DNA of 64,000 nucleotides from Betaproteobacteria bacterium (GTDB lineage Bacteria; Pseudomonadota; Gammaproteobacteria; Burkholderiales; SG8-39). The stretch is from NCBI GenBank assembly GCA_947478805.1, contig CANJXQ010000005.1:6346-70345 (forward strand), in the 5' to 3' direction. The notes beneath the pieces are model-generated. The model did not search any database and had not been told where the DNA came from. It worked only from the letters and a program-made list of their open reading frames with translations. Position 1 is the stretch's first letter. Each line of letters begins with the position of its first letter. This document shows, in pieces, positions 18,639 to 36,822 of the stretch. Made by a program: the position numbers and the translations under genes.

Positions 18639-19541
18639 ATGCTCCTCAAGAACCTCATCATCTACCGGCTAGCAAAGAAGTGGTCCCTGAAGTCGGACGA
18701 CCTGGAAAAGAAACTCGAAGCCCAGGCGTTGCAGCCCTGCGGCAGCTTCGAGATGGAAAGCCGGGGCTGGCTGCCGCCGCAAGGCGAGCACCGCCTGGTC
18801 TATACGCAGGCTCACCACTGGTTGTTGATGCTGGGGGTCGAGCAGAAGCTGTTGCCGGCCTCGGTCATCCGGCAAGCCGCCAAGGATCGCGCCACGCAAA
18901 TTACCGCGCAGCTCGGCCGCCCGGTCGGGCGCAAGCAGATGCGCGACCTGCGCGACCAGGTCACCAACGAGCTGCTGCCGCGCGCGCTCGCCAAGCGCGC
19001 CACCACGCGCGCATGGATCGACACCAAGGGCCGCTGGCTGGTGGTGGACGCGGGTGCCGACAAGAAGGCCGAGGAATTCGTCGATGCGCTGCGGCGCGTC
19101 GAAGAGGATTTCCCGTGCAAGCGCCTGGAGACGGAACGCTCCCCTGGTTCGGCCATGACCAGGTGGCTCGCCTCAGGCAAGCCGCCTGCCGGCTTCACTA
19201 TCGACCAGGACCTCGAGCTGCAGTCGGTCGACCTCGCCAAATCCACCATCCGATACACGCGCCACTCGCTGGAGGGCAAGGAAATCCGCGACCATATCGC
19301 GAGCGGCAAGACGGTGATTCGCCTGGGCATGACCTGGAAGGACAAGATCACCTTCGTGCTCACCGACGAGCTGCACGTCAAGCGGGTGAACTTCGTGGAC
19401 ATCATCCGCGATGAGACGGGCGAAGAGGCCGAGGATGCGGATGAGCAATTCGACATCGATTTCGCATTGATGACGGGCGAGCTGTCGCTGTTTCTCGACG
19501 ATCTCGCTGAAGCGCTGGACGGGGAGAAGGCGAAGGACTAG
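18639..19541 (+). CDS. rdgC: recombination-associated protein RdgC
   Basis: ORF 18609..19541 trimmed to MLLKNLIIYRL. Length of about 300 aa and sequence pattern are typical of RdgC. Confidence 0.85.
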   Translation: MLLKNLIIYRLAKKWSLKSDDLEKKLEAQALQPCGSFEMESRGWLPPQGEHRLVYTQAHHWLLMLGVEQKLLPASVIRQAAKDRATQITAQLGRPVGRKQMRDLRDQVTNELLPRALAKRATTRAWIDTKGRWLVVDAGADKKAEEFVDALRRVEEDFPCKRLETERSPGSAMTRWLASGKPPAGFTIDQDLELQSVDLAKSTIRYTRHSLEGKEIRDHIASGKTVIRLGMTWKDKITFVLTDELHVKRVNFVDIIRDETGEEAEDADEQFDIDFALMTGELSLFLDDLAEALDGEKAKD

Positions 19542-20146
19542 CCGCGAGGCGCAGTGCCTGTCATCGATGCACGCTGCGAGAAGCCGGCGAACCAGTCCGC
19601 GAGCTTCGGGGCCTTGTCGCGCCAGCCCAGGTCGGCAAAGCGAAAATCGAGGTAGCCGAGGGCGCAGCCGATCGACAACGTGCCGATATCAATCCGGCCC
19701 GGCAGCGATTCGGCGATGCCTTCCATCCAGTCGACGCCGGAGCGGATCTTGGCGAGCTGGCTCCCCGTCCAGTCGGCCCAGCGCAGCGCTTCCGGCCTGA
19801 GCGTGATCTCGTAACGCGCGAGCAGCGCGGCGCCGAGTATGCCGTCTGCAGCCGCATGTTCGGTGAGGCGCGCCCAGCGTTCGCGGCCCGATTTCGGGAA
19901 CAGATTGCCGCCGAAGGTCGCGTCGAGGTACTCGCAGATCACGACGCTGTCGAACAGGACGGTGCCATCGTCGCAGAAGAAGGTGGGTACCTGGCCCGTT
20001 GGGTTGCTCTTGACGATGTTGGCGTCCCGATTGATCGCATGCGCCGCATTGGGGAGTTTCTCGATGCGGTCTGCAACGCCCAGTTCATGGGCCACTGCCA
20101 TGCACTTGCGCACGTAGGGTGACGAGGTCGAGAAAAAGATCTTCAT
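19538..20146 (-). CDS. glutathione S-transferase family protein
   Basis: 202 aa. N-terminal thioredoxin-like GST domain with SPYVRK and GQVPTF motifs. Confidence 0.8.
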   Translation of the reverse strand: MKIFFSTSSPYVRKCMAVAHELGVADRIEKLPNAAHAINRDANIVKSNPTGQVPTFFCDDGTVLFDSVVICEYLDATFGGNLFPKSGRERWARLTEHAAADGILGAALLARYEITLRPEALRWADWTGSQLAKIRSGVDWMEGIAESLPGRIDIGTLSIGCALGYLDFRFADLGWRDKAPKLADWFAGFSQRASMTGTAPRG

Positions 20147-20211
20147 GGATTGCGCCTTTCATGGTTTGTCGTGTGGTTTGATTGTGACTGGGTACGCAGA
20201 AGACTGCAGGG

Positions 20212-21969: not shown

Positions 21970-22008
21970 GGGCGGGCCCGAGTCCGATGGTCCTGCGAGC
22001 CGGACGGC

Positions 22009-22884
22009 CTAGGACTTATTCTCGGCGCGCACGGCGACTTCCATCCGGCCGATGGACTCGATTTCGGCGAGCATCATGTCCCCGGGGGCGATGCGCGATG
22101 CGCCCTTGGGATTCCCCGTCATGAAGATGTCGCCAGGGTAGAGCGTCATGACGCTCGAGGCGAATTCGATCATGCTGGGAACGTCCAGGACCATGCGGCT
22201 GGTGGTTTCGTCCTGGCGCAGTTCCCCGTTGAGCCAGAGCCGGATATCGAGGTTGTTCGGCTGGGCGATTTCTTCCCGCGTGACCACCCACGGGCCGAGC
22301 ACGCCAAAGGTGTCGAAGGACTTGTTGTAGCTCGGTGTTTCATCCCCTCGCATGGTGATGTCCATGCCGATCGAGTAGCCGAGGATGTAATCGAAGGCGC
22401 GCTCCTTGGGGATGTTGGTGCCCTTCTTGCCGATGATGATCGCGAGCTCCGTCTCGTGCACGGTCAGGCGCTCCGTGTTGCGCAGCTCGACTCCTTCCGA
22501 GGGGCCGACGAGCGCGCTGGTCGCCTTGATGAACATGCCGTGTTCGCGCGGCTGCTTCTTGGTGGCGGCCACGTGCTCCGGGTAATTGGCAACGCCCAGC
22601 AGGATCTTGTTCGGGTTCGCAACAGGGCTGAGCAGTCGGACCTTGGCAAGCGGTATTGCGGGCGACTTGTCCGCCAGTTCTTCCATGCGCGGCCGTAGCA
22701 TCGCGAAGTTGGCGATCACCTGGTCTTCCCGCGGGAAGGGCCAGCGCAATGCCGGCAGGGCTTCGAGGACCGCGGTGACATCGTGGATGCCGCCGTCGCG
22801 TACGACGCCAAGGCGGCTCGCATCCGCGGTAAGCCGGGTGTCGCCAGGATGTGTTGGGTCGGCATAGAAGCGGCAGAATCTCAC
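22009..22884 (-). CDS. fumarylacetoacetate hydrolase (FAH) family protein
   Basis: ORF 22009..23004 trimmed to the GTG at 22884, which follows GAGGAGACAAC. C-terminal FAH block ELAIIIGKK...DYILGYSIGMDITMR...LYPGDIFMTG. Confidence 0.8.
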   Translation of the reverse strand: MRFCRFYADPTHPGDTRLTADASRLGVVRDGGIHDVTAVLEALPALRWPFPREDQVIANFAMLRPRMEELADKSPAIPLAKVRLLSPVANPNKILLGVANYPEHVAATKKQPREHGMFIKATSALVGPSEGVELRNTERLTVHETELAIIIGKKGTNIPKERAFDYILGYSIGMDITMRGDETPSYNKSFDTFGVLGPWVVTREEIAQPNNLDIRLWLNGELRQDETTSRMVLDVPSMIEFASSVMTLYPGDIFMTGNPKGASRIAPGDMMLAEIESIGRMEVAVRAENKS

Positions 22885-22927
22885 GTTGTCTCCTCGGGTT
22901 GCGTGTTGTTTCGGGGCTCCGCCTTGC

Positions 22928-23812
22928 CTAGAAAGGCACGGTGCCCTCGATGGTCGTTCGGTGCATGCGACGGCGCTGTGGCAGTTGGTAATCGCCGAGC
23001 GCATTGTGGATGGCAGCGCAGTTGTCCCAGAGGATGAAGTCGCCCACCCTCCAGCTGTGCCGGTAGACGAAGCGCGGCTGGGTCATGTGCTCGCGTAGCA
23101 TGTCCAGAAGCTCGTCCGCTTCGGCCTCCGGCATGCCCACGATGCCGACTGACAGCGGCCCGCTGACGTACAGGCACTTGCGCCCCGTGCGCGGGTGGGT
23201 GCGCACCAGCGGGTGAATGACATCCGGAACGCTGTCCTTGTTCTTTTCCCGTTCGGCCTGCGTCTTTTTCCCGCCGTCGCCCATCTCCTGGCGCGCCTTG
23301 CGTTCGGTAAAGATACGATAACTGTTGAGGACCTTCAGCCCATCGATCCGGCGCCGGGTTTCCTCGGGCAGCGCATCGTAGGCGGCGGAGGTGCTGGCGA
23401 ACAGGGTGTCGCCCAACGCGACGCCAGCCGCATCGTGCGGCACTTCGAGCGCATAGAGGGCCGAGCCGCGTGGCGGTTGTTCGACAAAGGCCATGTCGCT
23501 GTGCCAGTTGCGGCCCGCATCGGCCATGCCGATCGGCCTGCCATTCTCGATGATGTTGGACACGACGAAGATCTCCGGAAATCCCGGAAGGAGAAAGGTG
23601 TCGATGAGGAACTTCTCCAGGCTGCCGAAGCGACGACTGAAGTCCGCCTGCTGGCGGGGCGTCAGTTGCTGGTCCCGGAACAGGACCACCCCGTACTGGT
23701 CGAAGGTTCTTTCGATTTCAGCGAAGGTCGCATCATCCAGGTCCTGGGACAGGTCGACGCCCAGGATCTCGTGGCCCAGCGGTGCGTCAGCGTAGCGAAG
23801 TTTCAGTGTCAT
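22928..23812 (-). CDS. TauD/TfdA family Fe(II)/2-oxoglutarate dioxygenase
   Basis: 294 aa with WHSD, DTLFAS and WDNCAAIHNA blocks. Second paralogue in the window. Confidence 0.8.
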   Translation of the reverse strand: MTLKLRYADAPLGHEILGVDLSQDLDDATFAEIERTFDQYGVVLFRDQQLTPRQQADFSRRFGSLEKFLIDTFLLPGFPEIFVVSNIIENGRPIGMADAGRNWHSDMAFVEQPPRGSALYALEVPHDAAGVALGDTLFASTSAAYDALPEETRRRIDGLKVLNSYRIFTERKARQEMGDGGKKTQAEREKNKDSVPDVIHPLVRTHPRTGRKCLYVSGPLSVGIVGMPEAEADELLDMLREHMTQPRFVYRHSWRVGDFILWDNCAAIHNALGDYQLPQRRRMHRTTIEGTVPF

Positions 23813-24076
23813 TGTGATTCCTGATGCTCACGGCCTGTTTCACGGGGCTTTCGTCGAGTCACGTCACAACCAATTTACGAGGCAGTACCTCTCCATGCCA
23901 AGTATATCCAACCCTTTCGTCCGGGTTGCTCCAACGGTCGCAGGCAAGGGGTTGATCGCTTGCCTGTCCTGCATCATTGTTTGTGGTGAAGATAGGCGTT
24001 ACGTATACTTGAGCCCTACAGATTGCCGAGTGCGCCCGCGGTGTGGTTGGGGGTGCCTTTTACCGAGGAGGAACGT

Positions 24077-25060
24077 ATGTCCAATGCAACGATGATGGCT
24101 GCACGAAATCTGCTCCGAGCGGCTGCAGGCTTGTTGGTGATCTGCCTTGTGGCCGGAGCGCAGGCCCAGGAGAACTACCCGAGCCGCAAGAACGTGACGC
24201 TCATCGTCACCTATTCTGCTGGTGCGACCGACACCACGGCGCGGATGTTCGTGCCGTACTTTTCGGAAAAGCTCGGGCAGAAGGTGGTGGTCGAAAACGT
24301 GCCTGGCGCCTCGGGGAACCTCGGATACGCCGCGGGCATGCGCGCAGCGCCTGATGGCTACACCATCGTCTTTGCAGTGCAGGGCCTGGCCAGCAACCCC
24401 GCCTTGTTCGGTGACGCGCCCTACGATCCGATCAAGTCCTTCGTGCCGGTGACGGTGGTGGCAAATCTCTACCAGATGCTCGTTGCCTCGCCGGCGGTGC
24501 CTTTCAACAATCTCACCGAGCTAATCGCGCTGGCGCGCAAGCGCCCGGGCGAGCTGACCTACGCGGAGACGGGGGGCTCGGCCCGGTTTGCGATGGAAGT
24601 GCTGATCGGCATGGCAGGTAACATGAAGCTCACCAACGTCACTTTCAAAGGCGGCGGGGAGTCACTGAATGCGGTGCTGGGCGGGCATGTCAACATGCTG
24701 TGGGATTCCGTGTCCCAGATGGGCGCCCATGTCCAGGCCGGAAGACTCAAGCCGATCGCCTGGGCCGGCGCAAAGCGCAACAAGCAGTTCCCCAACGTGC
24801 CGACCGTTGGCGAGTCCGTTCCGGGCTATGAGTACGGTGGCTGGTTCGGCCTGATCGTTCCTGCCGGCACACCGCGCCCGATCGTGGACCGCATTCGAAC
24901 CGCGGCCGTTGCGGCACTGCAGGTACCGGAACTGCAGCGCAAGCTCGAGGAGGGCGGCAACGAGGTAGTCGGCAGCACTTCCGAGGAGTTCGCCGCGCTG
25001 ATCCAGAAGGAAGTCGTTCGCTACCAGCAACTCACCAAGCAAATGGGAATTTCCCGCTAA
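24077..25060 (+). CDS. Bug-family (TctC-like) substrate-binding protein
   Basis: ORF 24023..25060 trimmed to the ATG at 24077, which follows GAGGAGGAACGT. Has a signal peptide and the VENVPGASGN and FKGGGES blocks. Confidence 0.85.
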   Translation: MSNATMMAARNLLRAAAGLLVICLVAGAQAQENYPSRKNVTLIVTYSAGATDTTARMFVPYFSEKLGQKVVVENVPGASGNLGYAAGMRAAPDGYTIVFAVQGLASNPALFGDAPYDPIKSFVPVTVVANLYQMLVASPAVPFNNLTELIALARKRPGELTYAETGGSARFAMEVLIGMAGNMKLTNVTFKGGGESLNAVLGGHVNMLWDSVSQMGAHVQAGRLKPIAWAGAKRNKQFPNVPTVGESVPGYEYGGWFGLIVPAGTPRPIVDRIRTAAVAALQVPELQRKLEEGGNEVVGSTSEEFAALIQKEVVRYQQLTKQMGISR

Positions 25061-25127
25061 GCGCGCAGCAGACGTCGCCTCCAGGGGGCCCGCCGACGAT
25101 AAATGCGGGTAGTGAGTCGGTGGACCG

Positions 25128-26399
25128 CTACAGCTTGCTGAACCGGATCGGCACGCTCGAATAGATCTCGTAGTGCGTCCCGGGGTCGCGCACCAGTGGC
25201 CGGTCAGGGTCCAGTTCCATGCCGGCACCGTAGAAGCGGCGTGATATGGACACCAGCGTGCCGTCCACGCCCACTTTGCCCATCGGGTTGCGGCTCCCTG
25301 TGACAAGCGGGCGCCCCGGGCAGGCATGCGCTCCGGCGCCGAAGGCGATGCCCCAGGGCGGCGTGTCTTTGGGTTGCACGCGTCGCGGGTTGAACTCGTC
25401 GGCGTGCTCGCCAAATCGTGCATCCATGTTGGCAGGAACGAAATACATGGCCACGGACTCGCCGGCGCGAATGGTGCGTCCGCTGGAGAGCGTGACATCT
25501 TCGGAGGCGACCCGGATGCGTGCGGGCGGGGCCACGGTGAGGCGAAGTGATTCGAAGGCCGCGCGGCGCAGGAATTCCGGGTCGGTGTCGATTAACATGC
25601 GATCTTCCGGGTGCTTCTGGAACCAGCGCTCGAGCCTGAGCGCGAGCGAAATGAACCCGTTGGCAGTGGTCTGCGTGGAGCCGGTAATGAAGCCGTCGAC
25701 CTCGCGCAGGAGCAGCATGTCGTCACTTTTCCAGGTGTCCTCGCGGTGCACGGTCATGAGGGTGAGCATGTCGGTGGCCAGCGCGTTGATGGCTTCGGGA
25801 CTGTCGCCCCTGGCACGCGCCTCGGCAATGAATTTTTTCCGGCGATCAAGGGAAGGGGTGAAGAATTCGCGCTGGAATTCGTCGCGCGCGGCGTGGCCGC
25901 GCGCGAGTACTGCGTCCTTGTCGTCCAGGCTCCAGTCCACAGTCTGCCCGGCGGTGATGGTGCGCACCTGGCGGATGAAGCGCTGTGTTGCTTCCGCCGA
26001 TTCAAGCCCGTCGATGCCGACCAGCGCCGCGGCCACGCGGTGCAGGCACACCTGGATGAGCGGCGCGAGATCGGTGCGCACAATGCCGTCTGCGCCGCGA
26101 TGGACGGCGGCTTCTTCGGCAAGGCAGCGCTCGACGACAGGCACGAGGTGACGGTCGCGATAGCCCGCCACCGCGTCATCGTCGAGCAGGCGCGCGAGGA
26201 TGCGACGACGTGCCAGGTGCTCCTCGCCGTCGATCATGAAGGTGGTGTCCTTCAACAGGCTTTGGCGCGCGATGCGGTGCCCGCCTTGCAGGAACTTGCG
26301 CGAGCGCAGCACCTCGCCGATTTCGTCGAAATCGGTGAGCTGGACCATGCCGGCCACGGCTTCGGCCAGCATTGCGTCGGCAGCGGCTTTCTGGTTCAT
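25128..26399 (-). CDS. cytochrome P450
   Basis: 423 aa. Heme-thiolate loop FGAGAHACPG, ExxR (ESLR), and an I-helix-like GSTQTT. Confidence 0.85.
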   Translation of the reverse strand: MNQKAAADAMLAEAVAGMVQLTDFDEIGEVLRSRKFLQGGHRIARQSLLKDTTFMIDGEEHLARRRILARLLDDDAVAGYRDRHLVPVVERCLAEEAAVHRGADGIVRTDLAPLIQVCLHRVAAALVGIDGLESAEATQRFIRQVRTITAGQTVDWSLDDKDAVLARGHAARDEFQREFFTPSLDRRKKFIAEARARGDSPEAINALATDMLTLMTVHREDTWKSDDMLLLREVDGFITGSTQTTANGFISLALRLERWFQKHPEDRMLIDTDPEFLRRAAFESLRLTVAPPARIRVASEDVTLSSGRTIRAGESVAMYFVPANMDARFGEHADEFNPRRVQPKDTPPWGIAFGAGAHACPGRPLVTGSRNPMGKVGVDGTLVSISRRFYGAGMELDPDRPLVRDPGTHYEIYSSVPIRFSKL

Positions 26400-26513
26400 G
26401 CGAGCCTCTCTTGAGATAAGTAGTGGGGCTGATTCAGTCAGGTCGGGCCATTATCCGCGCCGCCTCTTGCCTTTGCAGCGAATTCAACGGGCGTCGGTTG
26501 TGGTGCGGTCCGG

Positions 26514-27440
26514 TCACGCGCCTGCGAGGGTCGCGCGCAGGCGTGCCAGGGGGCGCCCGTCGATGGCCGCAAGGCCCAGTCCTATCAATGTGATGCCGAA
26601 CCCCTGTTGCACGGTGAAGGTTTCGTCGAGGATGAAGACACCGAGCAGGAGCGCGCTGACTGGCGCGAGAAAGGTCACGATGATGCCGTTGGTGGCGCCC
26701 ACGGACTTCAGAATGGCGAAATAGAGCAACGGGGTGATGCCGGTGCTGAGGACCGCCAAGGCCAGGACGGCAACGATCGGCAGCGTTCCGGGCATGGGCA
26801 GGGTCCAGGGCTGGTCGACGATGAGTGCCACGGGCAGGCTGAGGACTGCAGCGCCGGTTACTTGCCCGGTAGCGGTAACCATCGAAGGCTGATTGCGAAA
26901 CCGCCGTGCATAGACTGCCGCCAGGCCATAGGAGAACGCGCCGCCGAGCACCGCGACCTGCGCAACGACTTGATCGCCCAGGCCGCGTAGTGCTTCTATG
27001 CCGACCATCACGGAGACCCCGGCCATGCCCAGCAGCACGCCCACGAACTTGGGCATTGTCAGGCGCTCGTCGCGCGTTGCGTAGTGCGCCACGACAACGG
27101 CGAACAGGGGCGCCGTGGTGTTGAATATCGCGGCAAGGCCGCTGGCGATTTGCTTCTGGCCCCAGGTGACCAGGCAGAACGGCAGAAACAGGTTCAGGAA
27201 GCCCAGGATGAACATGTCGCGCCAAAGCTTGAGCGGCAAGATGAAACTGTAGCCGCGCGCGCTGACATAGGCGAGGAGCAGCACCGATCCGATGACCAGG
27301 CGAATCGACACCACGGTGATGGGCGGCAGGCCTCGCAGCGCCAGCGCGTTAAAGAAGTATGAGCCGCCCCACAGGATCGCGAGCGACAGCATCAGCGTCC
27401 AGTCGAGCAGACCGGGACGCGGGTAGGCCTGGTCGTTCAA
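26514..27440 (-). CDS. EamA/DMT family transporter (paralogue A)
   Basis: 308 aa, about 10 hydrophobic segments. Shares the blocks VAHYATRDERL, GATN, PVSALLLG and GLAAIDGR with the four tandem copies at 29279-33158. Confidence 0.85.
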   Translation of the reverse strand: MNDQAYPRPGLLDWTLMLSLAILWGGSYFFNALALRGLPPITVVSIRLVIGSVLLLAYVSARGYSFILPLKLWRDMFILGFLNLFLPFCLVTWGQKQIASGLAAIFNTTAPLFAVVVAHYATRDERLTMPKFVGVLLGMAGVSVMVGIEALRGLGDQVVAQVAVLGGAFSYGLAAVYARRFRNQPSMVTATGQVTGAAVLSLPVALIVDQPWTLPMPGTLPIVAVLALAVLSTGITPLLYFAILKSVGATNGIIVTFLAPVSALLLGVFILDETFTVQQGFGITLIGLGLAAIDGRPLARLRATLAGA

Positions 27441-27480
27441 CGCCTAAGGCCGATCTGTGTTGCGTGCTTGGGCGCTTGCC

Positions 27481-28398
27481 TCATGCGGCCGCTGCGACCT
27501 GCCGTGCAGCCATGGCCTGCGCCACCCGCGAATTGGGCGCGCGACCGAGTGCTTCGCAGATGAACTGTCCGGCAGCGAACACCTTGTCGATGTCCACGCC
27601 GGTGTGGATGCCCATGCCGTTGAGCATGTAGAGCACGTCTTCCGTGGCAACGTTGCCGCTCGCCCCCTTCGCGTAGGGGCAGCCACCCAGACCCGCTACC
27701 GAACTGTCAACCGTTGCGATGCCCGCTTCCATGGCCGCGTAGATGTTGGCCAATGCCTGGCCCCAGGTGTCGTGGGTATGCAGCGCAAGGCGCTCGACCG
27801 GAACATGGCGGGCCACCGCAGCGATCATCGTCTGTACTTTGCCTGGCGTCCCCACGCCGATGGTGTCGCCGAGCGAGATTTCATAGCAGCCCATGGCATC
27901 CAGCGCCTTGGCAATGTCGGCCACGGCTTGCGGGGAAACTTCGCCTTCATAGGGGCAACCGACCGCGCAAGAGATATAGCCGCGAATGCGCATCTTGTTC
28001 GTCCGGGCAAGATCCACTACCGGACGGAATCGCTCCAGGCTCTCGGCGATGCTGCAATTGATGTTGCGCTGGCTGAAGCGCTCCGTGGCTGCTGCAAACA
28101 CGGCGATTTCATCCACTCCCGAGGCCAGTGCCGCCTCCATGCCCTTGATGTTCGGCATCAGCACTGGGTAGGCGACGCCCGGTTTGCGCTGCAGGCCCTT
28201 CATCACCTCGGCGTGATCGGCCATCTGCGGCACCCATTTGGGTGAGACGAAGGCCGTGGCTTCCACGCTGGGCAGGCCTGCATCGGCAAGGCGGTGGATC
28301 AGTTCGAGCTTGACGGCCGTGGGCACGGCACGGGCTTCGTTTTGAAGCCCGTCGCGCGGCCCCACTTCGACGATGCGCACGCTCTTGGGCAGGTTCAT
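27481..28398 (-). CDS. hydroxymethylglutaryl-CoA lyase (LiuE/MvaB-like)
   Basis: ORF 27481..28440 trimmed to [21 protein letters not shown], the canonical HMGL N-terminus. Its start lies 2 nt after the upstream gene's stop. Confidence 0.85.
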
Positions 28399-28400
28399 GG

Positions 28401-29219
28401 TTATTCTCCGGGGGTCTTGGGCTTCGCCGGTGGCAGCCAATTCGGGCGGCGCTTCTCGAGGAAGGAGCGCACGCCTTCCTTGCCTTCGGCAGATGCGCGT
28501 GCCGTGGCGATGCGCGAAGCGGTGTCGGCGATCAGCGCGGCGTCGAGCGGGCAGCGCGCGACGTCGGCGATCAACTGCTTGGACGCCGATAGCGCGCCCG
28601 GACCGCCTTGGACCAATTGGGCCGCCAGGTGCGCGACGCGCTCATCGAGCGCGTGTGGCGCCACGGTCTCATGGACCAGGCCGATCCGCAGCGCTTCCGT
28701 GGCATCGAAGGCTTCGGCGGTGAGGAAGTAACGTCGCGCCGCCCGCTCGCCGATTGCGTTGATGACGTAGGGGCTGATGGTGGCTGGCGTGAGCCCGATG
28801 CGTACCTCGGACAGGCGGAACTGCGCATCCGTGGATGCGATGGCGATGTCGCAGGCGCAGACTAGCCCCATGCCCCCGGCAAATGCCGGCCCCTGCACTC
28901 GGGCAATGGTGGGCTTGGGCAGGGTATACAACCGGTGCAGCATCGCGGCCAACACCTCGGCGTCGGCGCGGTTCTCCTCGAAGCCGAAGCCTGCCATCTT
29001 CTTCATCCAGTGGAGGTCGGCGCCGGCGCAGAACGCCGTGCCGCGCCCGGCCAGGACGACGGCACGCACCCGCTCATCGGCGGCCAGCGCGACGAAGGAC
29101 GCATCCAGCTCGGCAATGGTGGCTTCGTTGAAGGCATTGCGCACCTCCGGGCGGTTGAGCCACACCGTCGCAATGCCGCCGGCAACGTCGATTTCAAGCG
29201 TTTGCGGATTCATGCGCAA
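28401..29219 (-). CDS. enoyl-CoA hydratase, methylglutaconyl-CoA hydratase (LiuC/AtuE)-like
   Basis: 272 aa. Crotonase fold with the [10 protein letters not shown] signature seen in LiuC-type hydratases. Confidence 0.75.
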
Positions 29220-29278
29220 ATTTTCTCACAGTCTCAAGGGTGCTGAGGGCGATGAGTTAATCGTTCGAGCACAACGGA

Positions 29279-30256
29279 TCAACGCTTTTTAGAGCGGTCA
29301 AAACCGGCGAGCCGGAACACCCGCCCGTCAATGGCGGCCAGGCCGACGCAGATCAGCGCCATGCCGGCAAACTGGCGCGGTTCGATGATTTCATCCAGCA
29401 CCAGCATGCCGAGCAGCAGCGCGCTGACGGGAATCAGGAATGTCACCAGCATCAGGTTGGTGGCGCCTGCCACGGCAAGGATCCGGAAGTACAGGTAGTA
29501 GGAGATGGCCGTGCAGAAAACCACCAGTCCCAGCATCGCGCCCCAGGTGATTGCGCCCGGCATGGCGAGGTTCCACGGGTGATCGATGACGAGGGCGAAT
29601 GGCGCCATGATGAAGGCGCAGCAAATCATCGGGCCCGTTGCGGCAACCATGGGCGGCAGCCCCGAGAGGCGGCGGCTGACAATGCTCGCGCAGGCATAGG
29701 ACAGCGCTGCAAATAGGATGGCCACCTGCGCGAGCACGTGCAGGCCGAGCCCGCGCAACGCATCGATGCCGACCATGACCGTGACGCCCGCAATGCCGAA
29801 GGCGATGCCGATGAGCTTGGGAACCGACATGCGCTCGTCGCGCGTTGCGTAGTGCGCCACCAGCACGGTAAATAGCGGCGAAGTGGCGTTGAGGATGGAG
29901 GCCAGGCCGCTGGCGATCTGCGTCTGGCCGTAGGAGATGAGGGTGAACGGAATCAGGCTGTTCATCGTGCCGATCAGGGCGAAATTCGCCCACACCGAAA
30001 GCCGGTGTTTCATGGACTGGCCGGACATCCGGACGATGAGATAAAGGAATACTCCCGCAAGCACCGAGCGCACCCACACCAGGGTGAAAGGCGGCAATTC
30101 GCGCAGCGCCACCTTGTTGAAGAAGAACGAGGATCCCCAGACAGCGGCGAGGGCGACCAGCAGCACCCATTCGAATACGCCCATGCGGTAGTGACCCGGG
30201 CTGACGGGTGGCGCGGTGGTCGTGCCCGATGATGTGCTGTCGGTGACTGACTTCAT
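29279..30256 (-). CDS. EamA/DMT family transporter (paralogue B)
   Basis: 325 aa. Its ATG overlaps the stop of paralogue C (ATGA at 30253-30256). Shares blocks with A, C, D and E. Confidence 0.85.
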   Translation of the reverse strand: MKSVTDSTSSGTTTAPPVSPGHYRMGVFEWVLLVALAAVWGSSFFFNKVALRELPPFTLVWVRSVLAGVFLYLIVRMSGQSMKHRLSVWANFALIGTMNSLIPFTLISYGQTQIASGLASILNATSPLFTVLVAHYATRDERMSVPKLIGIAFGIAGVTVMVGIDALRGLGLHVLAQVAILFAALSYACASIVSRRLSGLPPMVAATGPMICCAFIMAPFALVIDHPWNLAMPGAITWGAMLGLVVFCTAISYYLYFRILAVAGATNLMLVTFLIPVSALLLGMLVLDEIIEPRQFAGMALICVGLAAIDGRVFRLAGFDRSKKR

Positions 30257-31188
30257 GCGCCCGCCACGCGGGCGCGCAACCAGGTCAGCACGCGACCGTC
30301 AATGGCTGCCAGGCCCGCTGCAATCATGAGCATGCCGGCAAGGTGGCGCGGTTCGACGGTCTCACCGACAAACAAGACGCCAAGCAGGATCGCGCTCACC
30401 GGTGTCAGCAGGTTGACCAGGATGACATTGGTGGAGCCCACGCTGGCCAGCAGCCGGAAATACAACACATAGGAAATACCCGAACCGATGACGGCAAGAC
30501 CCGCAATCGACCACCAGGTCGCGGCACCCGGCATCGCAAGTTCCCAGGGGTGGTCGTGGATGAGCGCCAGGGGAATCATCAGGACCATCGACGTGGCTGC
30601 CTGCCCTGCCGCCGAGACCACCGGGGGGATGTCCTTCAGGCGTCGCCCGATGATCCCCGCGGTGGCCATGGCCGCCGCCGACACCAGCACTGCGAGTTGC
30701 GCCGTGACATGGTCGCCGATGCCGCGCAACGCATCGGGCCCCATGATGACGGCGACGCCAGCCACGCCCGCGAGCACGCCCGCGACTTTGCGACGGGTCA
30801 TTTTTTCGTCATGCGTGAACACATGCGCGAGAACGACGACGAACAGCGGCGCGGAAGCCGCAAGAATGGCGGCGAGTCCGGCGGAGATGTATGTCTGGCC
30901 GTAAGTGGTGAAGTTGAAGGTCACGAAATTGTTGACCAGCCCCATCATGGCGATGCCACGCCATGTGCGCCAGGACTGGCGCATCGAATGGCCGAAGGCA
31001 TGCACCATGAGGACGAGAAAGGCAGTGGCGAGGATGAGGCGCACGCATACCAGCGAGAAGTGGGGCAATTCGCGCAGCGCGATCTTGTTGAAAAGGAAGG
31101 ACGAGCCCCACAGCGTGCCAAGCAGGATCATGATCGACCACTCCAGGGCGCTCATGTGCGATGCGCGGGGGGCATGCAGGCGCGTCAT
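30253..31188 (-). CDS. EamA/DMT family transporter (paralogue C)
   Basis: 311 aa. Starts 6 nt after the stop of paralogue D. Confidence 0.85.
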   Translation of the reverse strand: MTRLHAPRASHMSALEWSIMILLGTLWGSSFLFNKIALRELPHFSLVCVRLILATAFLVLMVHAFGHSMRQSWRTWRGIAMMGLVNNFVTFNFTTYGQTYISAGLAAILAASAPLFVVVLAHVFTHDEKMTRRKVAGVLAGVAGVAVIMGPDALRGIGDHVTAQLAVLVSAAAMATAGIIGRRLKDIPPVVSAAGQAATSMVLMIPLALIHDHPWELAMPGAATWWSIAGLAVIGSGISYVLYFRLLASVGSTNVILVNLLTPVSAILLGVLFVGETVEPRHLAGMLMIAAGLAAIDGRVLTWLRARVAGA

Positions 31189-31194
31189 CGTGGC

Positions 31195-32145
31195 TTATCC
31201 GGCTCTCGCACCGGGCAGTCGTGAGCCAATCCACGCAATGATCCGTCCGTCGATGGCGGCAAGGCCGGCGGCGATCAGCGCCATGCCGGCGACCTGGCGC
31301 GGCTCGATGATTTCAGCGAGGAAGAAGGCACCCAGCAGCAGTGCCGTGACCGGGTTGAGGAAAGTCACCAGCAGCAGGTTGGTGGCGCCGGAGGTCGCCA
31401 GCAGGCGGTAGTAGATGGTGTATCCCAGCGCCGTGCCACCGAGTGCGATGCCTCCCACAGCGAGCCAGGTCACGACGCCTGGCATTGGCAGTTGCCACGG
31501 GTGGTCGGTGAATAGCGCGAGGGGGAGGAGGAACAGCGTTGTCCAGGCAGCCTGTCCGGTAGCCGACAGCAGCGGCGGCACTGCCTTGAGGCTGCGTCCG
31601 AACACGCCGGCCATGGCCATGGACATGGCCGCCAGCACCAGCGCCAGTTCGCCCAGCAGTGCCGGGCTGATGCCGCGCAGCGCGCTGGGGCCGATGATCA
31701 CGGCGACACCCGCGATGCCAGTCAGAACACCCGTGATCTTGAGCGCGCTCAAACGCTCGTCGCGCAGGAAGAAGTGGGCGAAGATTACCGTGAACATGGG
31801 CGCGGAAGCGTTGAGTACTGCGGCAAGCCCGCTGGTGATTTGCGTCTGGCCCCAAGCGTTCAGGGAATGCGGCACCAGGCTGTTCAAGAGGCCCATGATG
31901 GCGAAGCTGCGCCACACCCGCCACGGTTGCGCCAGCGAGTGCCCGAGCGCCATGGCCACTGCGGCCAGCGCGGCGGTGGTGATGATCATGCGCAGGCACA
32001 CCAGGGTGAACGGCGGCAATTCGCGCAGGGCAAGCTGGATGAGGTTGAATGAGCCTCCCCACAGGAAACTGAGCAGGATCAACAGGCCCCATTCCACCGG
32101 GCCCATGGCAAAGCCGCCTGTTCGTGAGGTGGTGGGCATGCTCAT
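31195..32145 (-). CDS. EamA/DMT family transporter (paralogue D)
   Basis: 316 aa. Its ATG overlaps the stop of paralogue E (32142-32145). Confidence 0.85.
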   Translation of the reverse strand: MSMPTTSRTGGFAMGPVEWGLLILLSFLWGGSFNLIQLALRELPPFTLVCLRMIITTAALAAVAMALGHSLAQPWRVWRSFAIMGLLNSLVPHSLNAWGQTQITSGLAAVLNASAPMFTVIFAHFFLRDERLSALKITGVLTGIAGVAVIIGPSALRGISPALLGELALVLAAMSMAMAGVFGRSLKAVPPLLSATGQAAWTTLFLLPLALFTDHPWQLPMPGVVTWLAVGGIALGGTALGYTIYYRLLATSGATNLLLVTFLNPVTALLLGAFFLAEIIEPRQVAGMALIAAGLAAIDGRIIAWIGSRLPGARAG

Positions 32146-33158
32146 CGTGCTGCGGGCCCGCTGCGCCAGGCACGCGAACGCAACCAGGCCAGCGGCCTGC
32201 CGTCGATGACGGCCAGGCCGGTGCCGATCAGCAGCATGCCGGCGACCTGGCGCGTGTCGATGATTTCATCGAGGAATGCCGCGCCCATCAACAGTGCGCT
32301 CACCGGAATGGTCAGTGTGACCAGCGAGAGATTGGTCGCCCCCGCATTGGCGAGCAGGCGAAAGTAGATCAGGTACGCGAACACGGTGCCAAGGATGGCC
32401 AGGGAGATCACCATGATCCACGTGGTCTGCCCGGGGAGTGCGCGCGTCCACGGCTGCTCGAAGGCGATGGCCAGCGGCAGTGAAAAGACTGCAGCGCAAA
32501 TGCACTGGCCGGTCGCGGATACCGCAGTCGGCACGGCGTGCAGCCGGCGCCCAAAAATGCCGGCCAACGCGAGCGTCACGGCGGTCCCTAGCAGGGAACA
32601 TTGGGCCAGCACGTCCAGGCGCGCGCCGCGCAAGGCATCGAATCCCATGATGACGGCCACGCCCGCGATGCCCAGCAGCACGCCTGTGATCTTGCGCCAA
32701 GTCATTTGCTCGTCGCGAGTGAGGAAATGCGCGAAGATCACCCCGAACAAGGGCGTGCTGGCGGTGATGATGGAGGCGAGGCCGCTGGGGAGCTGCACCT
32801 GGCCCCAGGCGGTAAACGTGTAGGGCATGAGCACGTTGAGCAGTCCCATGCCGGCAAACCCTTTCCACGCCGAGCGCGGCTGGCGGATCGTCGCGCCAGT
32901 GGCCTTGAGGTACGCGAGCAGCAGCAGCGAAGTCAGCGTGAGGCGCAGGAAGATCAGCGTGAATGGCGGCAGCTCGCGCAGCGCGACCTTGTTCAGCACG
33001 AATGACGTGCCCCACAAGACCCCCAGCGTGAACAGCAGAGTCCATTCAAGAAGCCCCATGGTGAGTCGGGGCAGGGCGGTGGTGCGTTGCATGGCGGGAA
33101 GCTCGGCATTGTGAGGCTTGCCCGGCAGCCAGTCCATCGGGATTTCAGAAGTTCCCAC
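32142..33158 (-). CDS. EamA/DMT family transporter (paralogue E)
   Basis: 338 aa as tracked. The true start may be the internal Met at 33092 (MQRTTALPRL...). First gene of the string. Confidence 0.8.
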   Translation of the reverse strand: MGTSEIPMDWLPGKPHNAELPAMQRTTALPRLTMGLLEWTLLFTLGVLWGTSFVLNKVALRELPPFTLIFLRLTLTSLLLLAYLKATGATIRQPRSAWKGFAGMGLLNVLMPYTFTAWGQVQLPSGLASIITASTPLFGVIFAHFLTRDEQMTWRKITGVLLGIAGVAVIMGFDALRGARLDVLAQCSLLGTAVTLALAGIFGRRLHAVPTAVSATGQCICAAVFSLPLAIAFEQPWTRALPGQTTWIMVISLAILGTVFAYLIYFRLLANAGATNLSLVTLTIPVSALLMGAAFLDEIIDTRQVAGMLLIGTGLAVIDGRPLAWLRSRAWRSGPAAR

Positions 33159-33232
33159 CTGTTTCGGCAGTTGCGGGCATTCTGTTACTGTTGGTGCCCC
33201 CGCCGATATCCACTCATTGTGAAACGCGATAG

Positions 33233-34405
33233 TTGAAACTCATACTCGTCGTTCTTCTCGCCGCGTTGACCAGCACTAGCGTATTTGGCAGCCGGGTCAT
33301 CGTGTCGCTCACGGCGATTCACCTGGGGGCGAGCCCTGCAGTGGTGGGTGGCATCATGTCACTCTACTTCCTGCCGCCGATCGTGCTCAGCATGTTCATG
33401 GGGCGCCTCGTCGACCGCACCGGAGTGGCATTGCCAATGGCGCTGGTGGCCAGTCTGCTCATCGCAGGGCACGTATTGCCCGCGGCCGCCCCGTCGTTGT
33501 GGACGCTGGCGATATCCGCTGCGTGTACGGGCACAGCGTTCGTCGGTGCGATGATCGCGCTGAGCAGTGCGGCCGCTTTTGCCGGTCCGCCCGAGGAGCG
33601 GGCGGTCAATTTCAGCTGGTTTACGCTGGGCACGGGTTTCGGCGTGGGACTCGGGCCGTTCCTCTCGGGGTTCGCGATCGACGACATGGGAGACCGTGCG
33701 GCGTCATTGGCGCTATGTGTGTGGCCCGCGGTAATACTTGCCATTCTGGCGGTGGCAAGGCGCAGGTTGCCCGTGGTCACCGCAGTCTCGACAGTTGGCA
33801 CTAGCTCTGCTGCGACAGGTGTGCAAGCACTGCCGTGGACCGAGTTGCTCCGCGACAAGCACCTGCGCGCGGCATTGGTGGCCAGTGTCATGGGCCCGGC
33901 CGGCTACGAGGTGTTCCTGTTCGTGATGCCGGTGCTGGGGTCGCGCATCGGCCTGTCGGCATCGACCATCGGCACCATTCTTGCGGCCAGTGCCGCGGCC
34001 ATCTTCGTGGTGCGCCTGGTCATGCCGATGCTGGTGCGGTGGATGCGCGATTGGACCATGATGGTGGTGGTGTTCATCGCCCTGTCGCTGTCCTTCCTGT
34101 TGCTGTCGATGCTCACGCAGACCTGGGTCTTGTTCCTGATCTCAATTGTCATGGGTGTCGCCCAGGGCATGGGGCAACCCGTGATCATGTCGATGTTCTT
34201 TGCGGCTTCGCCAGAAGGCCGCAAGGGGGAGGCGGCCGGCGTGCGGGGCATCCTGCAAAACACGTTCAGTGCTGCGTCACCGGTGCTGATGGGCGGGCTG
34301 GGCACGATCCTGGGACTGGGGCCTGTGCTCGTCGCTGCAGCGGTCATCTATGCCTGGGGAAGCTGGTATGCCCGGCGGCAATCGGTGGGGTGGACCCTGA
34401 CTTAG
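33233..34405 (+). CDS. MFS transporter
   Basis: 390 aa, TTG start, about 12 hydrophobic segments. Has an MFS loop motif, GRLVDRTG. Divergent from the EamA string. Confidence 0.8.
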   Translation: MKLILVVLLAALTSTSVFGSRVIVSLTAIHLGASPAVVGGIMSLYFLPPIVLSMFMGRLVDRTGVALPMALVASLLIAGHVLPAAAPSLWTLAISAACTGTAFVGAMIALSSAAAFAGPPEERAVNFSWFTLGTGFGVGLGPFLSGFAIDDMGDRAASLALCVWPAVILAILAVARRRLPVVTAVSTVGTSSAATGVQALPWTELLRDKHLRAALVASVMGPAGYEVFLFVMPVLGSRIGLSASTIGTILAASAAAIFVVRLVMPMLVRWMRDWTMMVVVFIALSLSFLLLSMLTQTWVLFLISIVMGVAQGMGQPVIMSMFFAASPEGRKGEAAGVRGILQNTFSAASPVLMGGLGTILGLGPVLVAAAVIYAWGSWYARRQSVGWTLT

Positions 34406-34444
34406 CGGTTTGTTTAAAGAAGGGGCACAGCCCCCCTTGATCCC

Positions 34445-35200
34445 CTAGCTGTTTGCGCTTCCGCAGGCAGGGCAGGCGGGGTCCCGCGTAAGGCGCACTG
34501 TGCGCCAATCGGCGCCAAGCGCATCGAACATGACCAGTCGTCCCGACAGCGTTTCACCGATGCCGATGAGCAACTTGAGCGCTTCGGCGGCTTGCACGGT
34601 GCCCACCATGCCCGTGAGCGGCGCGAACACGCCCATGACGGCGCAGCGGGTTTCCTCCAACTCTGCATTCTCGGGAAACAGGCAGGCATAACAGGGGCTG
34701 TCGTCGCGGCGAAGGTCGAAGACGGCGATTTGTGCATCGAAACGAATCGCCGCGCCGGATACCAGCGCCTTGCGATGCCGGACACAGGCGCGATTCACGG
34801 CATGTCGTGTGGCGAAATTGTCGGAGCAGTCGAGGACCACATCGGCCGCCGCGACTTCCCGCTCGAGGGCTTCACCTTCAAGGCGCATGCGCAGTGGGAC
34901 GACGTGCGTCTCCGGGTTCAGTCGCGCCAAGGTGTCGCGACCGGATTCAACCTTGGGTCGACCCACGGCGTCTGTGCCGTGCATGACCTGGCGCTGCAGG
35001 TTGGTCAGGTCGACCGTATCGCCATCGGCCAGCGCGATCGTGCCCACGCCGGCCGCTGCAAGATACATTGCTGCTGGTGAGCCGAGACCACCGGCGCCGA
35101 TGATCAGCGCGCGCGAATCAAGCAGCTTTTGCTGCCCCTCAACACCGATCTCGGTGAGCAGGATGTGGCGCGAGTAGCGCAGCAATTGCCCGTCGTTCAT
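34445..35200 (-). CDS. moeB: molybdopterin-synthase adenylyltransferase MoeB (HesA/MoeB/ThiF family)
   Basis: 251 aa with LRYSRHILL, GAGGLGSP and DxDxVxxxNLQRQ motifs, plus a C-terminal CPACG zinc motif. Confidence 0.7.
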   Translation of the reverse strand: MNDGQLLRYSRHILLTEIGVEGQQKLLDSRALIIGAGGLGSPAAMYLAAAGVGTIALADGDTVDLTNLQRQVMHGTDAVGRPKVESGRDTLARLNPETHVVPLRMRLEGEALEREVAAADVVLDCSDNFATRHAVNRACVRHRKALVSGAAIRFDAQIAVFDLRRDDSPCYACLFPENAELEETRCAVMGVFAPLTGMVGTVQAAEALKLLIGIGETLSGRLVMFDALGADWRTVRLTRDPACPACGSANS

Positions 35201-35379
35201 CGAATCACTCGCAAGAGCGGTTCAGCAGTTTTGGAGTTTACTTGCGGCGCGGGCATTGCTCGTGACTCTCCACGCGAGTGGCAACTTTGAACAATTTCCC
35301 GCCGATTGGGCCGCGCGAAAGCGCCGGCTCGCATCGGCGCAGATCAAGCGGCGCGCCTCGGGCAGCGCGTCCGCATTGA

Positions 35380-36822
35380 TCAGTTCTTGGGTGGCGCTTC
35401 GACCGGTGCCTGCGCGCTCTGCTGTTGCGGCGTGAGCTTCACCGGCAGGCCCTTGAGGCGATTGATCGCCTGCTGGAAAACGAAGTCCTTCTCGGAGGCA
35501 AACTCCATCGGCGTGAACGGTTTAGCGTCTTCGTCCGCCGGTTTTGCAGCCGGCTTGGCAGGCGCCGGGGCGGCCTTGGTGGCGATTTCTCCCGCCTTGC
35601 TTTCCGGATTGGCAAGATGCTTGTCCAGGTCCGCTTCGCGCAAGCCGATGGTTGGGCTTGCCGGATCCTCGATGATGAGATCCGGCACGATGCCCTTGGC
35701 CTGGATCGAGCGACCGCTGGGCGTGTAGTAGCGCGCGGTCGTGAGCTTGATCGCGGTGTTGTTTCCCAGCGGCATGATGGTCTGCACGGAGCCCTTGCCG
35801 AAGGTCTGTGTGCCGATCACCGTGGCGCGTTTGTGGTCCTGCAGGGCGCCTGCAACGATTTCCGAGGCGGAAGCCGAACCGCCATTGACCAGCACGACCA
35901 TGGGCACGCTCTTTACGGCCGCAGGCAGGTTTTTCAGGTAGTCCTCGCCGCGGCCACGCAGGTAATCCTCTGGCGTAGCGAGGAACTTGCGTCGTGCGTC
36001 GTCAGTGCGTCCGTCTGTCGACACCACGAGCGTCTTGGCGGGGAGAAACGCCGCGGAGATGCCGACGGCCCCGTTCAGCAGTCCACCCGGGTCATTGCGC
36101 AGGTCCAGCACCAGGCCCTTGAGCGGACCCTGCTTGTAGAGGTTGTTGAGGTGTCGCACCATCGTCTCGCCGGTGTGTTCCTGGAACTGCGATACGCGCA
36201 CCCAACCGTAGCCCGGCTCCACCAGTTTCGATTTCACGCTTTGCACCTGGATGATGTCGCGCACCAGGGTGATTTCCAATGGCTTGGGCTCGCCTTTTCT
36301 CACGATGGTGAGCTTGATCGAGGTCTTGGGCTTGCCGCGCATGCGCTTGACCGCGTCGTTGAGCGTCATGCCCTTGACCGGTGTCTCGTCGAGCTTGACG
36401 ATCAGATCGTTGGGCTTCAGGCCGGCGCGAAACGCCGGCGAGTCCTCGATCGGCGACACCACCTTGACGAAGCCGTCTTCCATGCCGACTTCGATTCCCA
36501 GGCCGCCGAACTCGCCCTGGGTTCCGACTTGAAGTTCCTTGAACGCTTCCTGGTCGAGATATGCCGAATGCGGATCGAGGTCAGTCAACATGCCGTTGAT
36601 GGCGCCAGTGATGAGCTTCTTGTCTTCGACGGGTTCGACGTAGCCGGACTTGATGGCGCCAAACACTTCGGCGAACGAACGCAAGTCTTCGATCGGCAGC
36701 GGGAGGCGCGATACGTCTCGCTGCGCGACCGCCGAGAAATTCAGCGATAGCGCCACACCGGCGACAACGCCGATGAGGACGAGCACGATCTGTTTCACTT
36801 TGGTACCCATGGTGGTACGCAT
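35380..36822 (-). CDS. ctpA: S41 family carboxy-terminal processing peptidase
   Basis: 480 aa. N-terminal TM segment, a PDZ-like segment, and the S41 blocks GGSASASEI and TFGKGSVQ. Confidence 0.85.
   Translation of the reverse strand: MRTTMGTKVKQIVLVLIGVVAGVALSLNFSAVAQRDVSRLPLPIEDLRSFAEVFGAIKSGYVEPVEDKKLITGAINGMLTDLDPHSAYLDQEAFKELQVGTQGEFGGLGIEVGMEDGFVKVVSPIEDSPAFRAGLKPNDLIVKLDETPVKGMTLNDAVKRMRGKPKTSIKLTIVRKGEPKPLEITLVRDIIQVQSVKSKLVEPGYGWVRVSQFQEHTGETMVRHLNNLYKQGPLKGLVLDLRNDPGGLLNGAVGISAAFLPAKTLVVSTDGRTDDARRKFLATPEDYLRGRGEDYLKNLPAAVKSVPMVVLVNGGSASASEIVAGALQDHKRATVIGTQTFGKGSVQTIMPLGNNTAIKLTTARYYTPSGRSIQAKGIVPDLIIEDPASPTIGLREADLDKHLANPESKAGEIATKAAPAPAKPAAKPADEDAKPFTPMEFASEKDFVFQQAINRLKGLPVKLTPQQQSAQAPVEAPPKN

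Follow-up and report, generated by a model that had tools for sequence, protein, structure and literature searches.

The DNA analyzed here is a stretch of 64,000 nucleotides (the window) from contig CANJXQ010000005.1 of a Betaproteobacteria bacterium (assembly GCA_947478805.1). Positions 25128-33158 of the window are occupied by an eight-gene string on the minus strand. The string is composed of five genes for EamA/DMT (drug/metabolite transporter) proteins, four of them in tandem, together with genes for an enoyl-CoA hydratase, a 3-hydroxy-3-methylglutaryl-CoA (HMG-CoA) lyase, and a cytochrome P450 (Table 1). The tandem four are labeled E1 to E4 in gene order, and E5 is the copy beyond the hydratase and the lyase. 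Five paralogs within 7 kb are not a chance pattern, and the 64-kb window contains no further EamA gene. A battery of autonomous DMT transporters with diverged specificity or kinetics, which would have arisen by a lineage-specific expansion to five orthologous groups, is the somewhat favored interpretation of this array.

Organization of the gene string

The five transporter open reading frames (ORFs) lie on the minus strand exactly where an earlier reading of the sequence alone had placed them, and profile matches identify the hydratase, HMG-CoA lyase, fifth EamA copy, and P450 that this sequence-only reading had also named in the string.

Table 1. Features of the gene string and its immediate flanks (window coordinates)
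Feature	Position	Strand	Details
MFS transporter, divergent	33233-34405	+	MFS_1, 130 bits; neighbor kept in L001, L003, L014, L019, L023, and the JGI contig
E1/MFS divergent intergenic region	33159-33232		74 nucleotides, read directly; no sigma-70 consensus, no Rfam match
E1, EamA/DMT	32142-33158	-	338 amino acids with GTG start, as longest ORF; PF00892 twice, 143 bits
E2, EamA/DMT	31195-32145	-	316 amino acids; PF00892 twice; start overlaps E1 stop (ATGA)
E3, EamA/DMT	30253-31188	-	311 amino acids; 6 nucleotides beyond E2
E4, EamA/DMT	29279-30256	-	325 amino acids; ATGA overlap onto E3; nearest copy to family consensus
Enoyl-CoA hydratase, AtuE/LiuC-like crotonase type	28401-29219	-	ECH_1, 190 bits; probable start ATG 29213
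HMG-CoA lyase	27481-28440	-	NF004283, 470.8 bits; HMGL-like, 200 bits
E5, EamA/DMT	26514-27440	-	308 amino acids, TTG start; PF00892 twice; two enzyme genes between E5 and E1-E4
Cytochrome P450, divergent member	25128-26399	-	PF00067; last gene in the string
TctC-family solute-binding protein, convergent with P450	24023-25060	+	PF03401, 194 bits

Direct reading of the junctions gave the ATGA overlaps at 32142-32145 and 30253-30256 and a 6-nucleotide spacer (GCCACG) at 31189-31194, as had been described. The other spacers are 59 nucleotides (E4 to hydratase), 40 nucleotides (lyase to E5), and 114 nucleotides (E5 to P450). The HMG-CoA lyase most likely starts at ATG 28398, 2 nucleotides past the hydratase stop. 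The start of E1 is uncertain. Alternative ATG codons are located at 33137, 33092, and 33059, of which 33092 or 33059 is the probable true start; agreement among the orthologs begins only near MQRTT/MGLLEW.

The string had been described as packed on one strand with short spacers and no visible terminator, which agrees with the junctions and with a terminator scan. The scan returned no intergenic site in the string and six matches in all, which are intragenic and equal in number to the shuffled expectation. A search of positions 24000-35500 for RNA families and riboswitches (Rfam) gave no match at E <=1, and a sigma-70 consensus scan gave no promoter match. The evidence for a putative single transcript is indirect, namely the shared strand, overlaps or spacers of at most 114 nucleotides, and the lack of an intergenic terminator or Rfam element. 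The string presumably has its promoter in the 74 nucleotides that separate E1 from the MFS gene.

The five EamA/DMT proteins

Each of the five proteins has two PF00892 matches, with scores of 133-147 bits (cut-off 28.2; E 1e-38 to 1e-43). Their alignment is gap-free from transmembrane helix (TM) 1 through TM10, and no copy has lost a TM segment. This is the end-to-end alignment that the sequence-only reading had recognized by its shared motif blocks, and these blocks are indeed present in the five proteins. It had put the copies at roughly 40-50% identity; the measured pairwise range is slightly higher, at 43.6-52.8%. At the DNA level, the copies are 65-70% identical, their synonymous sites are saturated, and no conversion tracts are observed. 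Recent amplification and gene conversion among the copies are ruled out because the longest exact word that they share is only 30 nucleotides. The copies are thus old paralogs, as had been proposed, and the orthologous groups E1 to E5 are recognizable in genomes to ~70% identity.

E4 is the sole copy that was modeled. Its AlphaFold2 (AF2) model has a pLDDT of 90, a pTM of 0.86, and ten long helices. The helices were assigned from this model together with gap and hydropathy counts per modeled helix; Kyte-Doolittle peaks gave fragmented TM counts. In a Foldseek search, the top match of the model is the monomeric-cavity DMT exporter YddG (5I20; E 1.6e-8, TM-score 0.64-0.71), followed by LicB, SLC35B1, and TPT. 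Identity to DMT members of solved structure is 18-20%. The family profile has no match among PDB sequences at E <=0.001, and the likeness to solved structures came from the fold search.

Bacterial 10-TM DMT/EamA proteins are very numerous, and few have a known substrate. The 10-TM DMT exporters YddG, YedA, EamA, and RhtA have, like E1-E5, two EamA repeats, ten TM helices, and the same fold (5I20). The named DMT equivalogs (YedA, YddG, the EamA O-acetylserine/cysteine exporter, and TIGR00950 2A78) are weak matches to E1-E5, at 82-109 bits, and because these scores are far under the NCBIfam cut-offs of 230-472, no substrate can be transferred from them. By every testable criterion, the sequences place E1-E5 as ordinary members of the EamA/DMT family, in none of its substrate-defined subfamilies. 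No exact-sequence match to E2 is on record in the assembly index.

Conservation of the array in relatives

A species-level genome scan identified the same layout in three freshwater Burkholderiales/Betaproteobacteria metagenome-assembled genomes, at 73-96% protein identity. In two of them (L001 and L003), the string E1-E2-E3-E4-hydratase-lyase-E5-P450 is complete, and the ATGA overlaps and 6-nucleotide gap of E1-E4 are identical to those of the window. The third (L002) is partial, from E3 onward. A metagenome scan with E2 returned four loci, the useful one being L019 (MFS, E1, E2), which supplies the array head lacking from the L002 genome. The complete 4+1 layout is also found on a 148-kb contig of JGI 3300059473 (the JGI contig), where the E2 ortholog is only 70% identical and spacers of 10-43 nucleotides stand in place of the ATGA overlaps. 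Flanking synteny is full on this contig, which reads M23, S41, ThiF, MFS (minus strand), four EamA genes, hydratase, lyase, EamA, P450, TctC, TauD, fumarylacetoacetate (FAA) hydrolase, and FAD_binding_2. The 4+1 layout thus occurs in at least four other assemblies (L001, L003, L002 with L019, and JGI), to ~70% protein identity. Because it is seen in independent assemblies, the array is taken as real. It is conserved within one clade, that of uncultured freshwater Burkholderiales.

Other relatives differ in copy number. L023 carries at least E1, E2, and E3 (72, 75, and 70% identical, respectively) up to the end of its contig, and a GMC oxidoreductase gene precedes its E1. The ENA contig ERZ1305449 carries three EamA genes, the hydratase, the lyase, a fourth EamA gene, a threonine-aldolase-like gene, and the P450. 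The first of these copies is E2, and E1 is apparently absent; UGSC genes are also found in this neighborhood. L014 has only two copies, E4 (69% identical) directly beside E5. The aldolase-like gene, the P450, and TctC come next, and both the hydratase and the lyase are missing. Copy number among the relatives is therefore two (L014), four (ERZ1305449), or five (elsewhere), which argues for independent units.

Orthologs of E1 are 94-95% identical in L001 and L003 and 69.5% identical in L019. Database orthologs of E2 end at 68-70% identity, and the next matches, at no more than 57%, belong to the general family. The P450 follows the array in four of the four array loci with the downstream end seen outside the 73-96% set of the window (L014, L002, ERZ1305449, and JGI). 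The hydratase-lyase pair occupies one and the same position in each of the five 4+1 arrays, and in the 3+1 array as well.

As a control, nine outside homologs (43-58% identity, mostly from alphaproteobacteria) were examined, and all are single-copy within +/-10 kb. Characterized 10-TM DMT/EamA members also normally sit as single genes. The array differs from these in keeping five diverged copies together.

The head of the array varies among the relatives. In L003, L001, and ERZ1305449, additional genes spanning 3-4 kb separate the MFS gene from the array, and they were identified in L003 and ERZ1305449. In L003, a partial E1 5' end lies beside the MFS gene (L003:3996-4137; 83% nucleotide identity to window positions 32940-33081). 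It is followed by an inserted minus-strand Peripla_BP_6 binding protein gene and an Amidohydro_2 gene (L003:4238-6934), and then by an intact E1. This fragment and these insertions give the array head the appearance of a hotspot of rearrangement.

The threonine-aldolase-like gene of the relatives is located between E5 and the P450 (PF01212, 172 bits; L014:2878-3975). A tblastn search of the window found no remnant of it, and only the spacer at 26400-26513 is present at that place.

Origin of the copies

Two neighbor-joining bootstrap trees were built, one of 142 sequences over 305 columns and one of 255 sequences, among them the database relatives nearest to E2. Every array copy falls, with the metagenomic orthologs, in one clan against 117 to ~220 outside homologs (bootstrap 0.94 and 0.98). 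Within the clan, E1, E2, and E3 form a subclade (0.98-0.99), the pairing of E4 with E5 is weak (0.60-0.67), and the L014 genes are clear orthologs of E4 and E5 (1.0). E4 is 55-60% identical to the outside homologs and 48-51% identical to its own paralogs. E1, E2, E3, and E5 are about 49-52% identical to the outside set.

The simplest history would be a duplication inside this lineage, followed by fast divergence, with E4 remaining nearest to the ancestral sequence. The simplest account of the hydratase-lyase pair is that it was inserted later between E4 and E5, or else was lost in L014.

Selection and divergence among the copies

The ratio of nonsynonymous to synonymous substitution rates (dN/dS) was estimated by the Nei-Gojobori method between the window and L001, L002, and L003, with dS up to ~1. 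All five transporters are under purifying selection. Their values of 0.065-0.27 span a range like that of the enzymes of the string (0.05-0.18). By gene, dN/dS is 0.08-0.15 for E1, 0.11 for E2, 0.09-0.15 for E3, 0.10-0.16 for E4, 0.07-0.27 for E5, 0.08-0.18 for the hydratase, and 0.05-0.12 for the HMG-CoA lyase.

Faster sequence evolution after duplication might mark the copies as decaying duplicates, i.e., pseudogenes in the making. This reading has next to no credibility and is rejected. The frames are intact, the TM1-TM10 core is complete, dN/dS remains at 0.07-0.27, and the orthologs are conserved in at least five assemblies. The sequence-only reading had also regarded the copies as kept and had looked to lost TM segments as the sign of decay; none is lost.

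The pattern of divergence was examined at the 112 columns of the alignment with an invariance of at least 90% across 117 outside homologs. At these columns, E1 has 26 substitutions, E2 has 20, E3 has 28, E4 has 15, and E5 has 25; the median for an outside homolog is 3. Nearly all of the changes in the first three copies are fixed in all orthologs (25 of 26 in E1, 20 of 20 in E2, and 24 of 28 in E3). The corresponding counts are 6 of 15 in E4 and 7 of 25 in E5, measured against larger and more distant ortholog sets (10 and 5 members, respectively).

In DMT structures, the substrate cavity is formed by TM1-4 and TM6-9 of one chain (PMC8890701). The substitutions are concentrated in these helices, with 105 of 420 cells changed in TM1-4 and TM6-9 vs 9 of 140 in TM5, TM10, and the loops (Fisher p = 4e-7). 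Per conserved column, there are 0.67 substitutions in TM5 and 0.14 in TM10, compared to 0.6-2.1 in TM1-4 and TM6-9. Several sites are changed recurrently, with a residue that differs by copy: N100 to V, S, or L; I107 to T, N, or V; Y187 to L or M; A68 to S, T, or G; and I275 to N, T, or A. Polar/apolar switches within helices include N100V/S/L, I107T/N, Y187L/M, F104H, I275N/T, R196S, R258A, and A261K. Diverged specificity under renewed constraint would be expected to leave such a pattern in the sequences.

The copies might instead all carry the same substrate and be kept for a larger amount of transporter or for robustness to loss. Higher dosage is usually reached by tandem duplication, the invariant core of the family (23 columns invariant across 119 sequences) is intact in every copy, and many of the substitutions are conservative. 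Dosage or redundancy is nevertheless an improbable explanation. Pure redundancy is normally lost or homogenized over such times, whereas these copies are only 44-53% identical with saturated synonymous sites and without conversion tracts, and the five orthologous groups have persisted through speciation to ~70% identity. The changes at invariant sites are also 5 to 9 times those of single-copy relatives and, in E1-E3, are nearly all fixed within the group.

Autonomous or heteromeric transporters

The array could also encode the subunits of one or a few composite transporters, with heterodimers or hetero-oligomers formed through the canonical TM5/TM10 interface of DMT proteins. In the strongest form of this proposal, the five paralogs would be facultative or obligate TM5/TM10 heterodimers that make up a combinatorial set, the first heteromeric 10-TM DMT system. 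The general proposal is unlikely, and the strong form is slightly more so.

Several observations are in keeping with heteromers. E1-E4 are coupled by ATGA overlaps or a 6-nucleotide gap that are the same in L001 and L003, and of all segments, TM5 and TM10 have changed the least from paralog to paralog. DMT proteins are known to dimerize through TM5/TM10, which is the dimer interface in TPT, Vrg4, and the CMP-sialic acid transporter (CST), and dimerization speeds transport in Vrg4 and CST (PMC8890701). There is also a natural protein in which two 10-TM EamA units are fused in a single chain. Against these stands a copy number of two, four, or five in relatives, which leaves no fixed subunit set. 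The overlaps become 10-43-nucleotide spacers in the 70% relative, two enzyme genes part E5 from E1-E4, and every protein has a complete 10-TM fold with its own cavity. The hetero-oligomeric or staged device that the sequence-only reading had offered as one of its two explanations therefore finds little favor in these results. A literature search turned up no heteromeric 10-TM DMT, and we know of none.

The single-chain fusion, P0322 (625 amino acids; L025:6001-7878), was found by an exhaustive search of representatives, and an identical product is encoded in two independent assemblies. A linker of ~35 amino acids connects its two EamA units, both of them complete with 10 TM helices. P0322 would be the single-chain counterpart of array heterodimers, if heterodimers form; it is only 33% identical to E1, and its context is unrelated. 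Three tandem alpha/beta-hydrolase paralogs are located a few kb upstream of the fusion gene (L025:904-3783).

Hydratase, lyase, and P450

The hydratase has the crotonase fold by its ECH_1 match. Its best NCBIfam match is PRK05674, the gamma-carboxygeranoyl-CoA hydratase, at 286 bits, below the cut-off of 426. Among solved structures, the third-best relative is PDB 4ZU2, a putative isohexenylglutaconyl-CoA hydratase (AtuE), at 165 bits. The neighboring enzyme matches NF004283/PRK05692 at 470.8 bits against a cut-off of 246, with residues 15-312 covering profile positions 1-298 of 300, and by this match it is a genuine HMG-CoA lyase.

The Liu/Atu clusters for the catabolism of leucine and acyclic terpenes contain a hydratase (LiuC/AtuE) and a lyase (LiuE) from the same families, and in the array the two genes are adjacent and coupled. 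Unlike the clusters, the array embeds the pair among transporter genes, and its hydratase scores below the AtuE equivalog cut-off. The acyl-CoA dehydrogenase and biotin carboxylase subunits of the clusters (liuA, liuB, liuD) were not found among the ~35 window proteins scanned. The scan, which began beyond the first 14 kb, covered the string and its flanks (17.6-39 kb) and other long ORFs at 14-17 and 41-62 kb.

The P450 matches PF00067 at 40.3 bits (cut-off 22.8), with the match confined to its C-terminal third. The heme-ligand loop FGAGAHACPG and the EXXR motif (ESLR) are both present in the translation. The P450 belongs to a small, divergent clade, with 87 database matches at E <=1e-10 and a best PDB match of 44 bits, and it reaches no named subfamily among the NCBIfam profiles. 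No ferredoxin or reductase gene adjoins it in the window. A homolog in Rhodoligotrophos (L018) lies next to a Fer2 gene and a reductase gene. A second P450 of the same clade, P0151, is located elsewhere on the JGI contig, where it adjoins TspO and TctC genes. P0151 is 52% identical to the window P450, and the P450 therefore has paralogs within one genome. With the P450 as the anchor, homologs at 66, 57, 52, and 46% identity were found in other, mostly catabolic contexts without EamA neighbors, and the linkage between the P450 and EamA genes is narrow for this reason.

In one of its two explanations, the sequence-only reading had tied the transporters to the CoA-ester and P450 chemistry encoded between them. 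Inside the clade, the 4+1 array is indeed co-conserved with the hydratase, lyase, and P450. Outside these limits the tie does not extend, as L014 lacks the hydratase and lyase, and P450 homologs at 66% identity or less occur without EamA genes. The transporters may have no functional bond to these enzymes and may lie with them in a flexible islet of gene gain and loss between conserved core genes, with the shared strand being incidental. The E4-E5-aldolase-P450 arrangement of L014 agrees with such an islet, and so does the threonine-aldolase-like gene that relatives have and the window does not. The same can be said of the insertions between the MFS gene and the array in L003, L001, and ERZ1305449, the stray E1 fragment in L003, the GMC oxidoreductase in L023, and the absence of liuA, liuB, and liuD from the genes scanned. 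This account is rather unlikely. The hydratase-lyase pair keeps its place in the 4+1 and 3+1 arrays across ~70% identity, it is under purifying selection comparable to that of the transporters, and the string has short spacers and no terminator.

Proposed function of the array

In the favored interpretation, one gene for an ordinary 10-TM DMT (EamA) secondary transporter would have been duplicated into E1-E5 in a freshwater Burkholderiales clade. Each copy would transport autonomously through a substrate cavity of its own. Once duplicated, the copies would have changed at positions that are constant in single-copy relatives, mostly in the cavity-forming helices, and the changes would then have been frozen by purifying selection. 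The string is probably expressed from a promoter in the 74-nucleotide intergenic region between E1 and the MFS gene, with the first four genes tightly or translationally coupled. The cargo might be small branched-chain or isoprenoid-type organic acids, or amino-acid-like metabolites. This class is suggested because an AtuE/LiuC-like hydratase, an HMG-CoA lyase, and a P450 are co-resident.

The changes at invariant sites in the cavity-forming helices, followed by purifying selection, argue for a co-expressed battery with different substrate or kinetic specificities. A substrate-range battery was the other explanation offered by the sequence-only reading. It is a plausible, unproven reading, in keeping with the surplus of changes that these helices show at family-invariant positions. 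No evidence points to a new mechanism; the array is an unusual organization of an ordinary family.

Several points weigh against a battery of autonomous, diverged transporters. Many of the substitutions are conservative A/S/T/G swaps in small-residue packing motifs, and their placement in the cavity is by helix rather than by side-chain facing. The outside homologs were picked by similarity to E4 and E2, which biases the "invariant" columns to consensus-like sequences. In E4 and E5, most substitutions are not common to all orthologs, and from these sequences, divergence appears to have continued within the clade. The trees are neighbor-joining only, and long-branch attraction among the fast-evolving copies is possible. 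The 59- and 114-nucleotide spacers could contain internal promoters. For the cargo class and the transport direction, the gene neighborhood allows only guesses, and the cargo guess is weakened by L014 and by the distant P450 homologs that have no EamA neighbors.

Comparison with known systems

Paired small multidrug resistance (SMR) proteins, e.g., EbrAB and YkkCD, are heterodimers of the DMT superfamily. They are encoded by adjacent, often overlapping, paralogous genes, and each protein is a 4-TM half-transporter that forms no pathway alone. The array shares the layout of adjacent paralogs from the same superfamily. It differs in that its products are full 10-TM proteins of 308-338 amino acids, in variable copy number, and not half-size 4-TM subunits.

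Homodimeric DMT proteins (TPT, Vrg4, CST, and LicB) have the fold of the array proteins, and the helices of their TM5/TM10 dimer interface are the best conserved among E1-E5. Each of these homodimers has a cavity per protomer, and no heterodimer is described (PMC8890701).

Tandem expansion is well known among transporter families. In plant UMAMIT/EamA clusters and the TctC/Bug proteins of Burkholderiales, a transport component has likewise been duplicated in tandem and has then diverged. UMAMIT arrays are made up of separately transcribed eukaryotic genes and TctC/Bug genes are dispersed, whereas the array is an operon-like bacterial string with five orthologous groups. UMAMIT tandem arrays are mentioned in PMC13512864. 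Several TctC genes are found within the window.

In the literature searched, no conserved, operon-like bacterial array of full-length, diverged DMT genes is described, which is absence of evidence and not proof, and nothing relevant was found on the combination of hydratase, lyase, P450, and EamA genes. The sequence-only reading likewise knew of no described system with this layout.

The five co-located paralogs provide a compact natural series for mapping specificity residues in the DMT fold. The same series is a direct test case for heterodimers among full-length DMT proteins. The array also marks a variable gene islet in abundant uncultured freshwater Burkholderiales, where transport has expanded beside branched-chain CoA-ester enzymes and an uncharacterized P450 clade. 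This islet may point to a class of dissolved organic compounds in lakes that is handled by these bacteria. If the copies are merely redundant or independent, the array is an ordinary gene-family expansion.

Surrounding genes

The surrounding window is ordinary chromosome, with genes for RdgC, S41 and M23 peptidases, ThiF, a cox operon, RpoH, FtsY, and Fpg. The genes at 46-53 kb are the cytochrome c oxidase operon.

The TctC-family gene that converges with the P450 also adjoins the P450 in L014 and on the JGI contig. Beyond it, a minus-strand string at 19538-23812, on the strand of the array, encodes a TauD-family dioxygenase, an FAA-hydrolase-family protein, an FAD_binding_2 oxidoreductase (585 amino acids), and a glutathione S-transferase (GST). 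The TauD, FAA hydrolase, and FAD_binding_2 genes are in the same order on the JGI contig, to the end of the stretch fetched, and the whole neighborhood is therefore syntenic.

A 332-amino-acid ORF at 17640-18638 (minus strand) has a coding-like GC3 of 0.74 and no Pfam match. A second TctC-family gene is located at 14241-15545 (minus strand). Its longest ORF is 434 amino acids, with ~150 N-terminal amino acids beyond the need of the domain, and this extra N-terminus is probably a mis-set start rather than a real extension.

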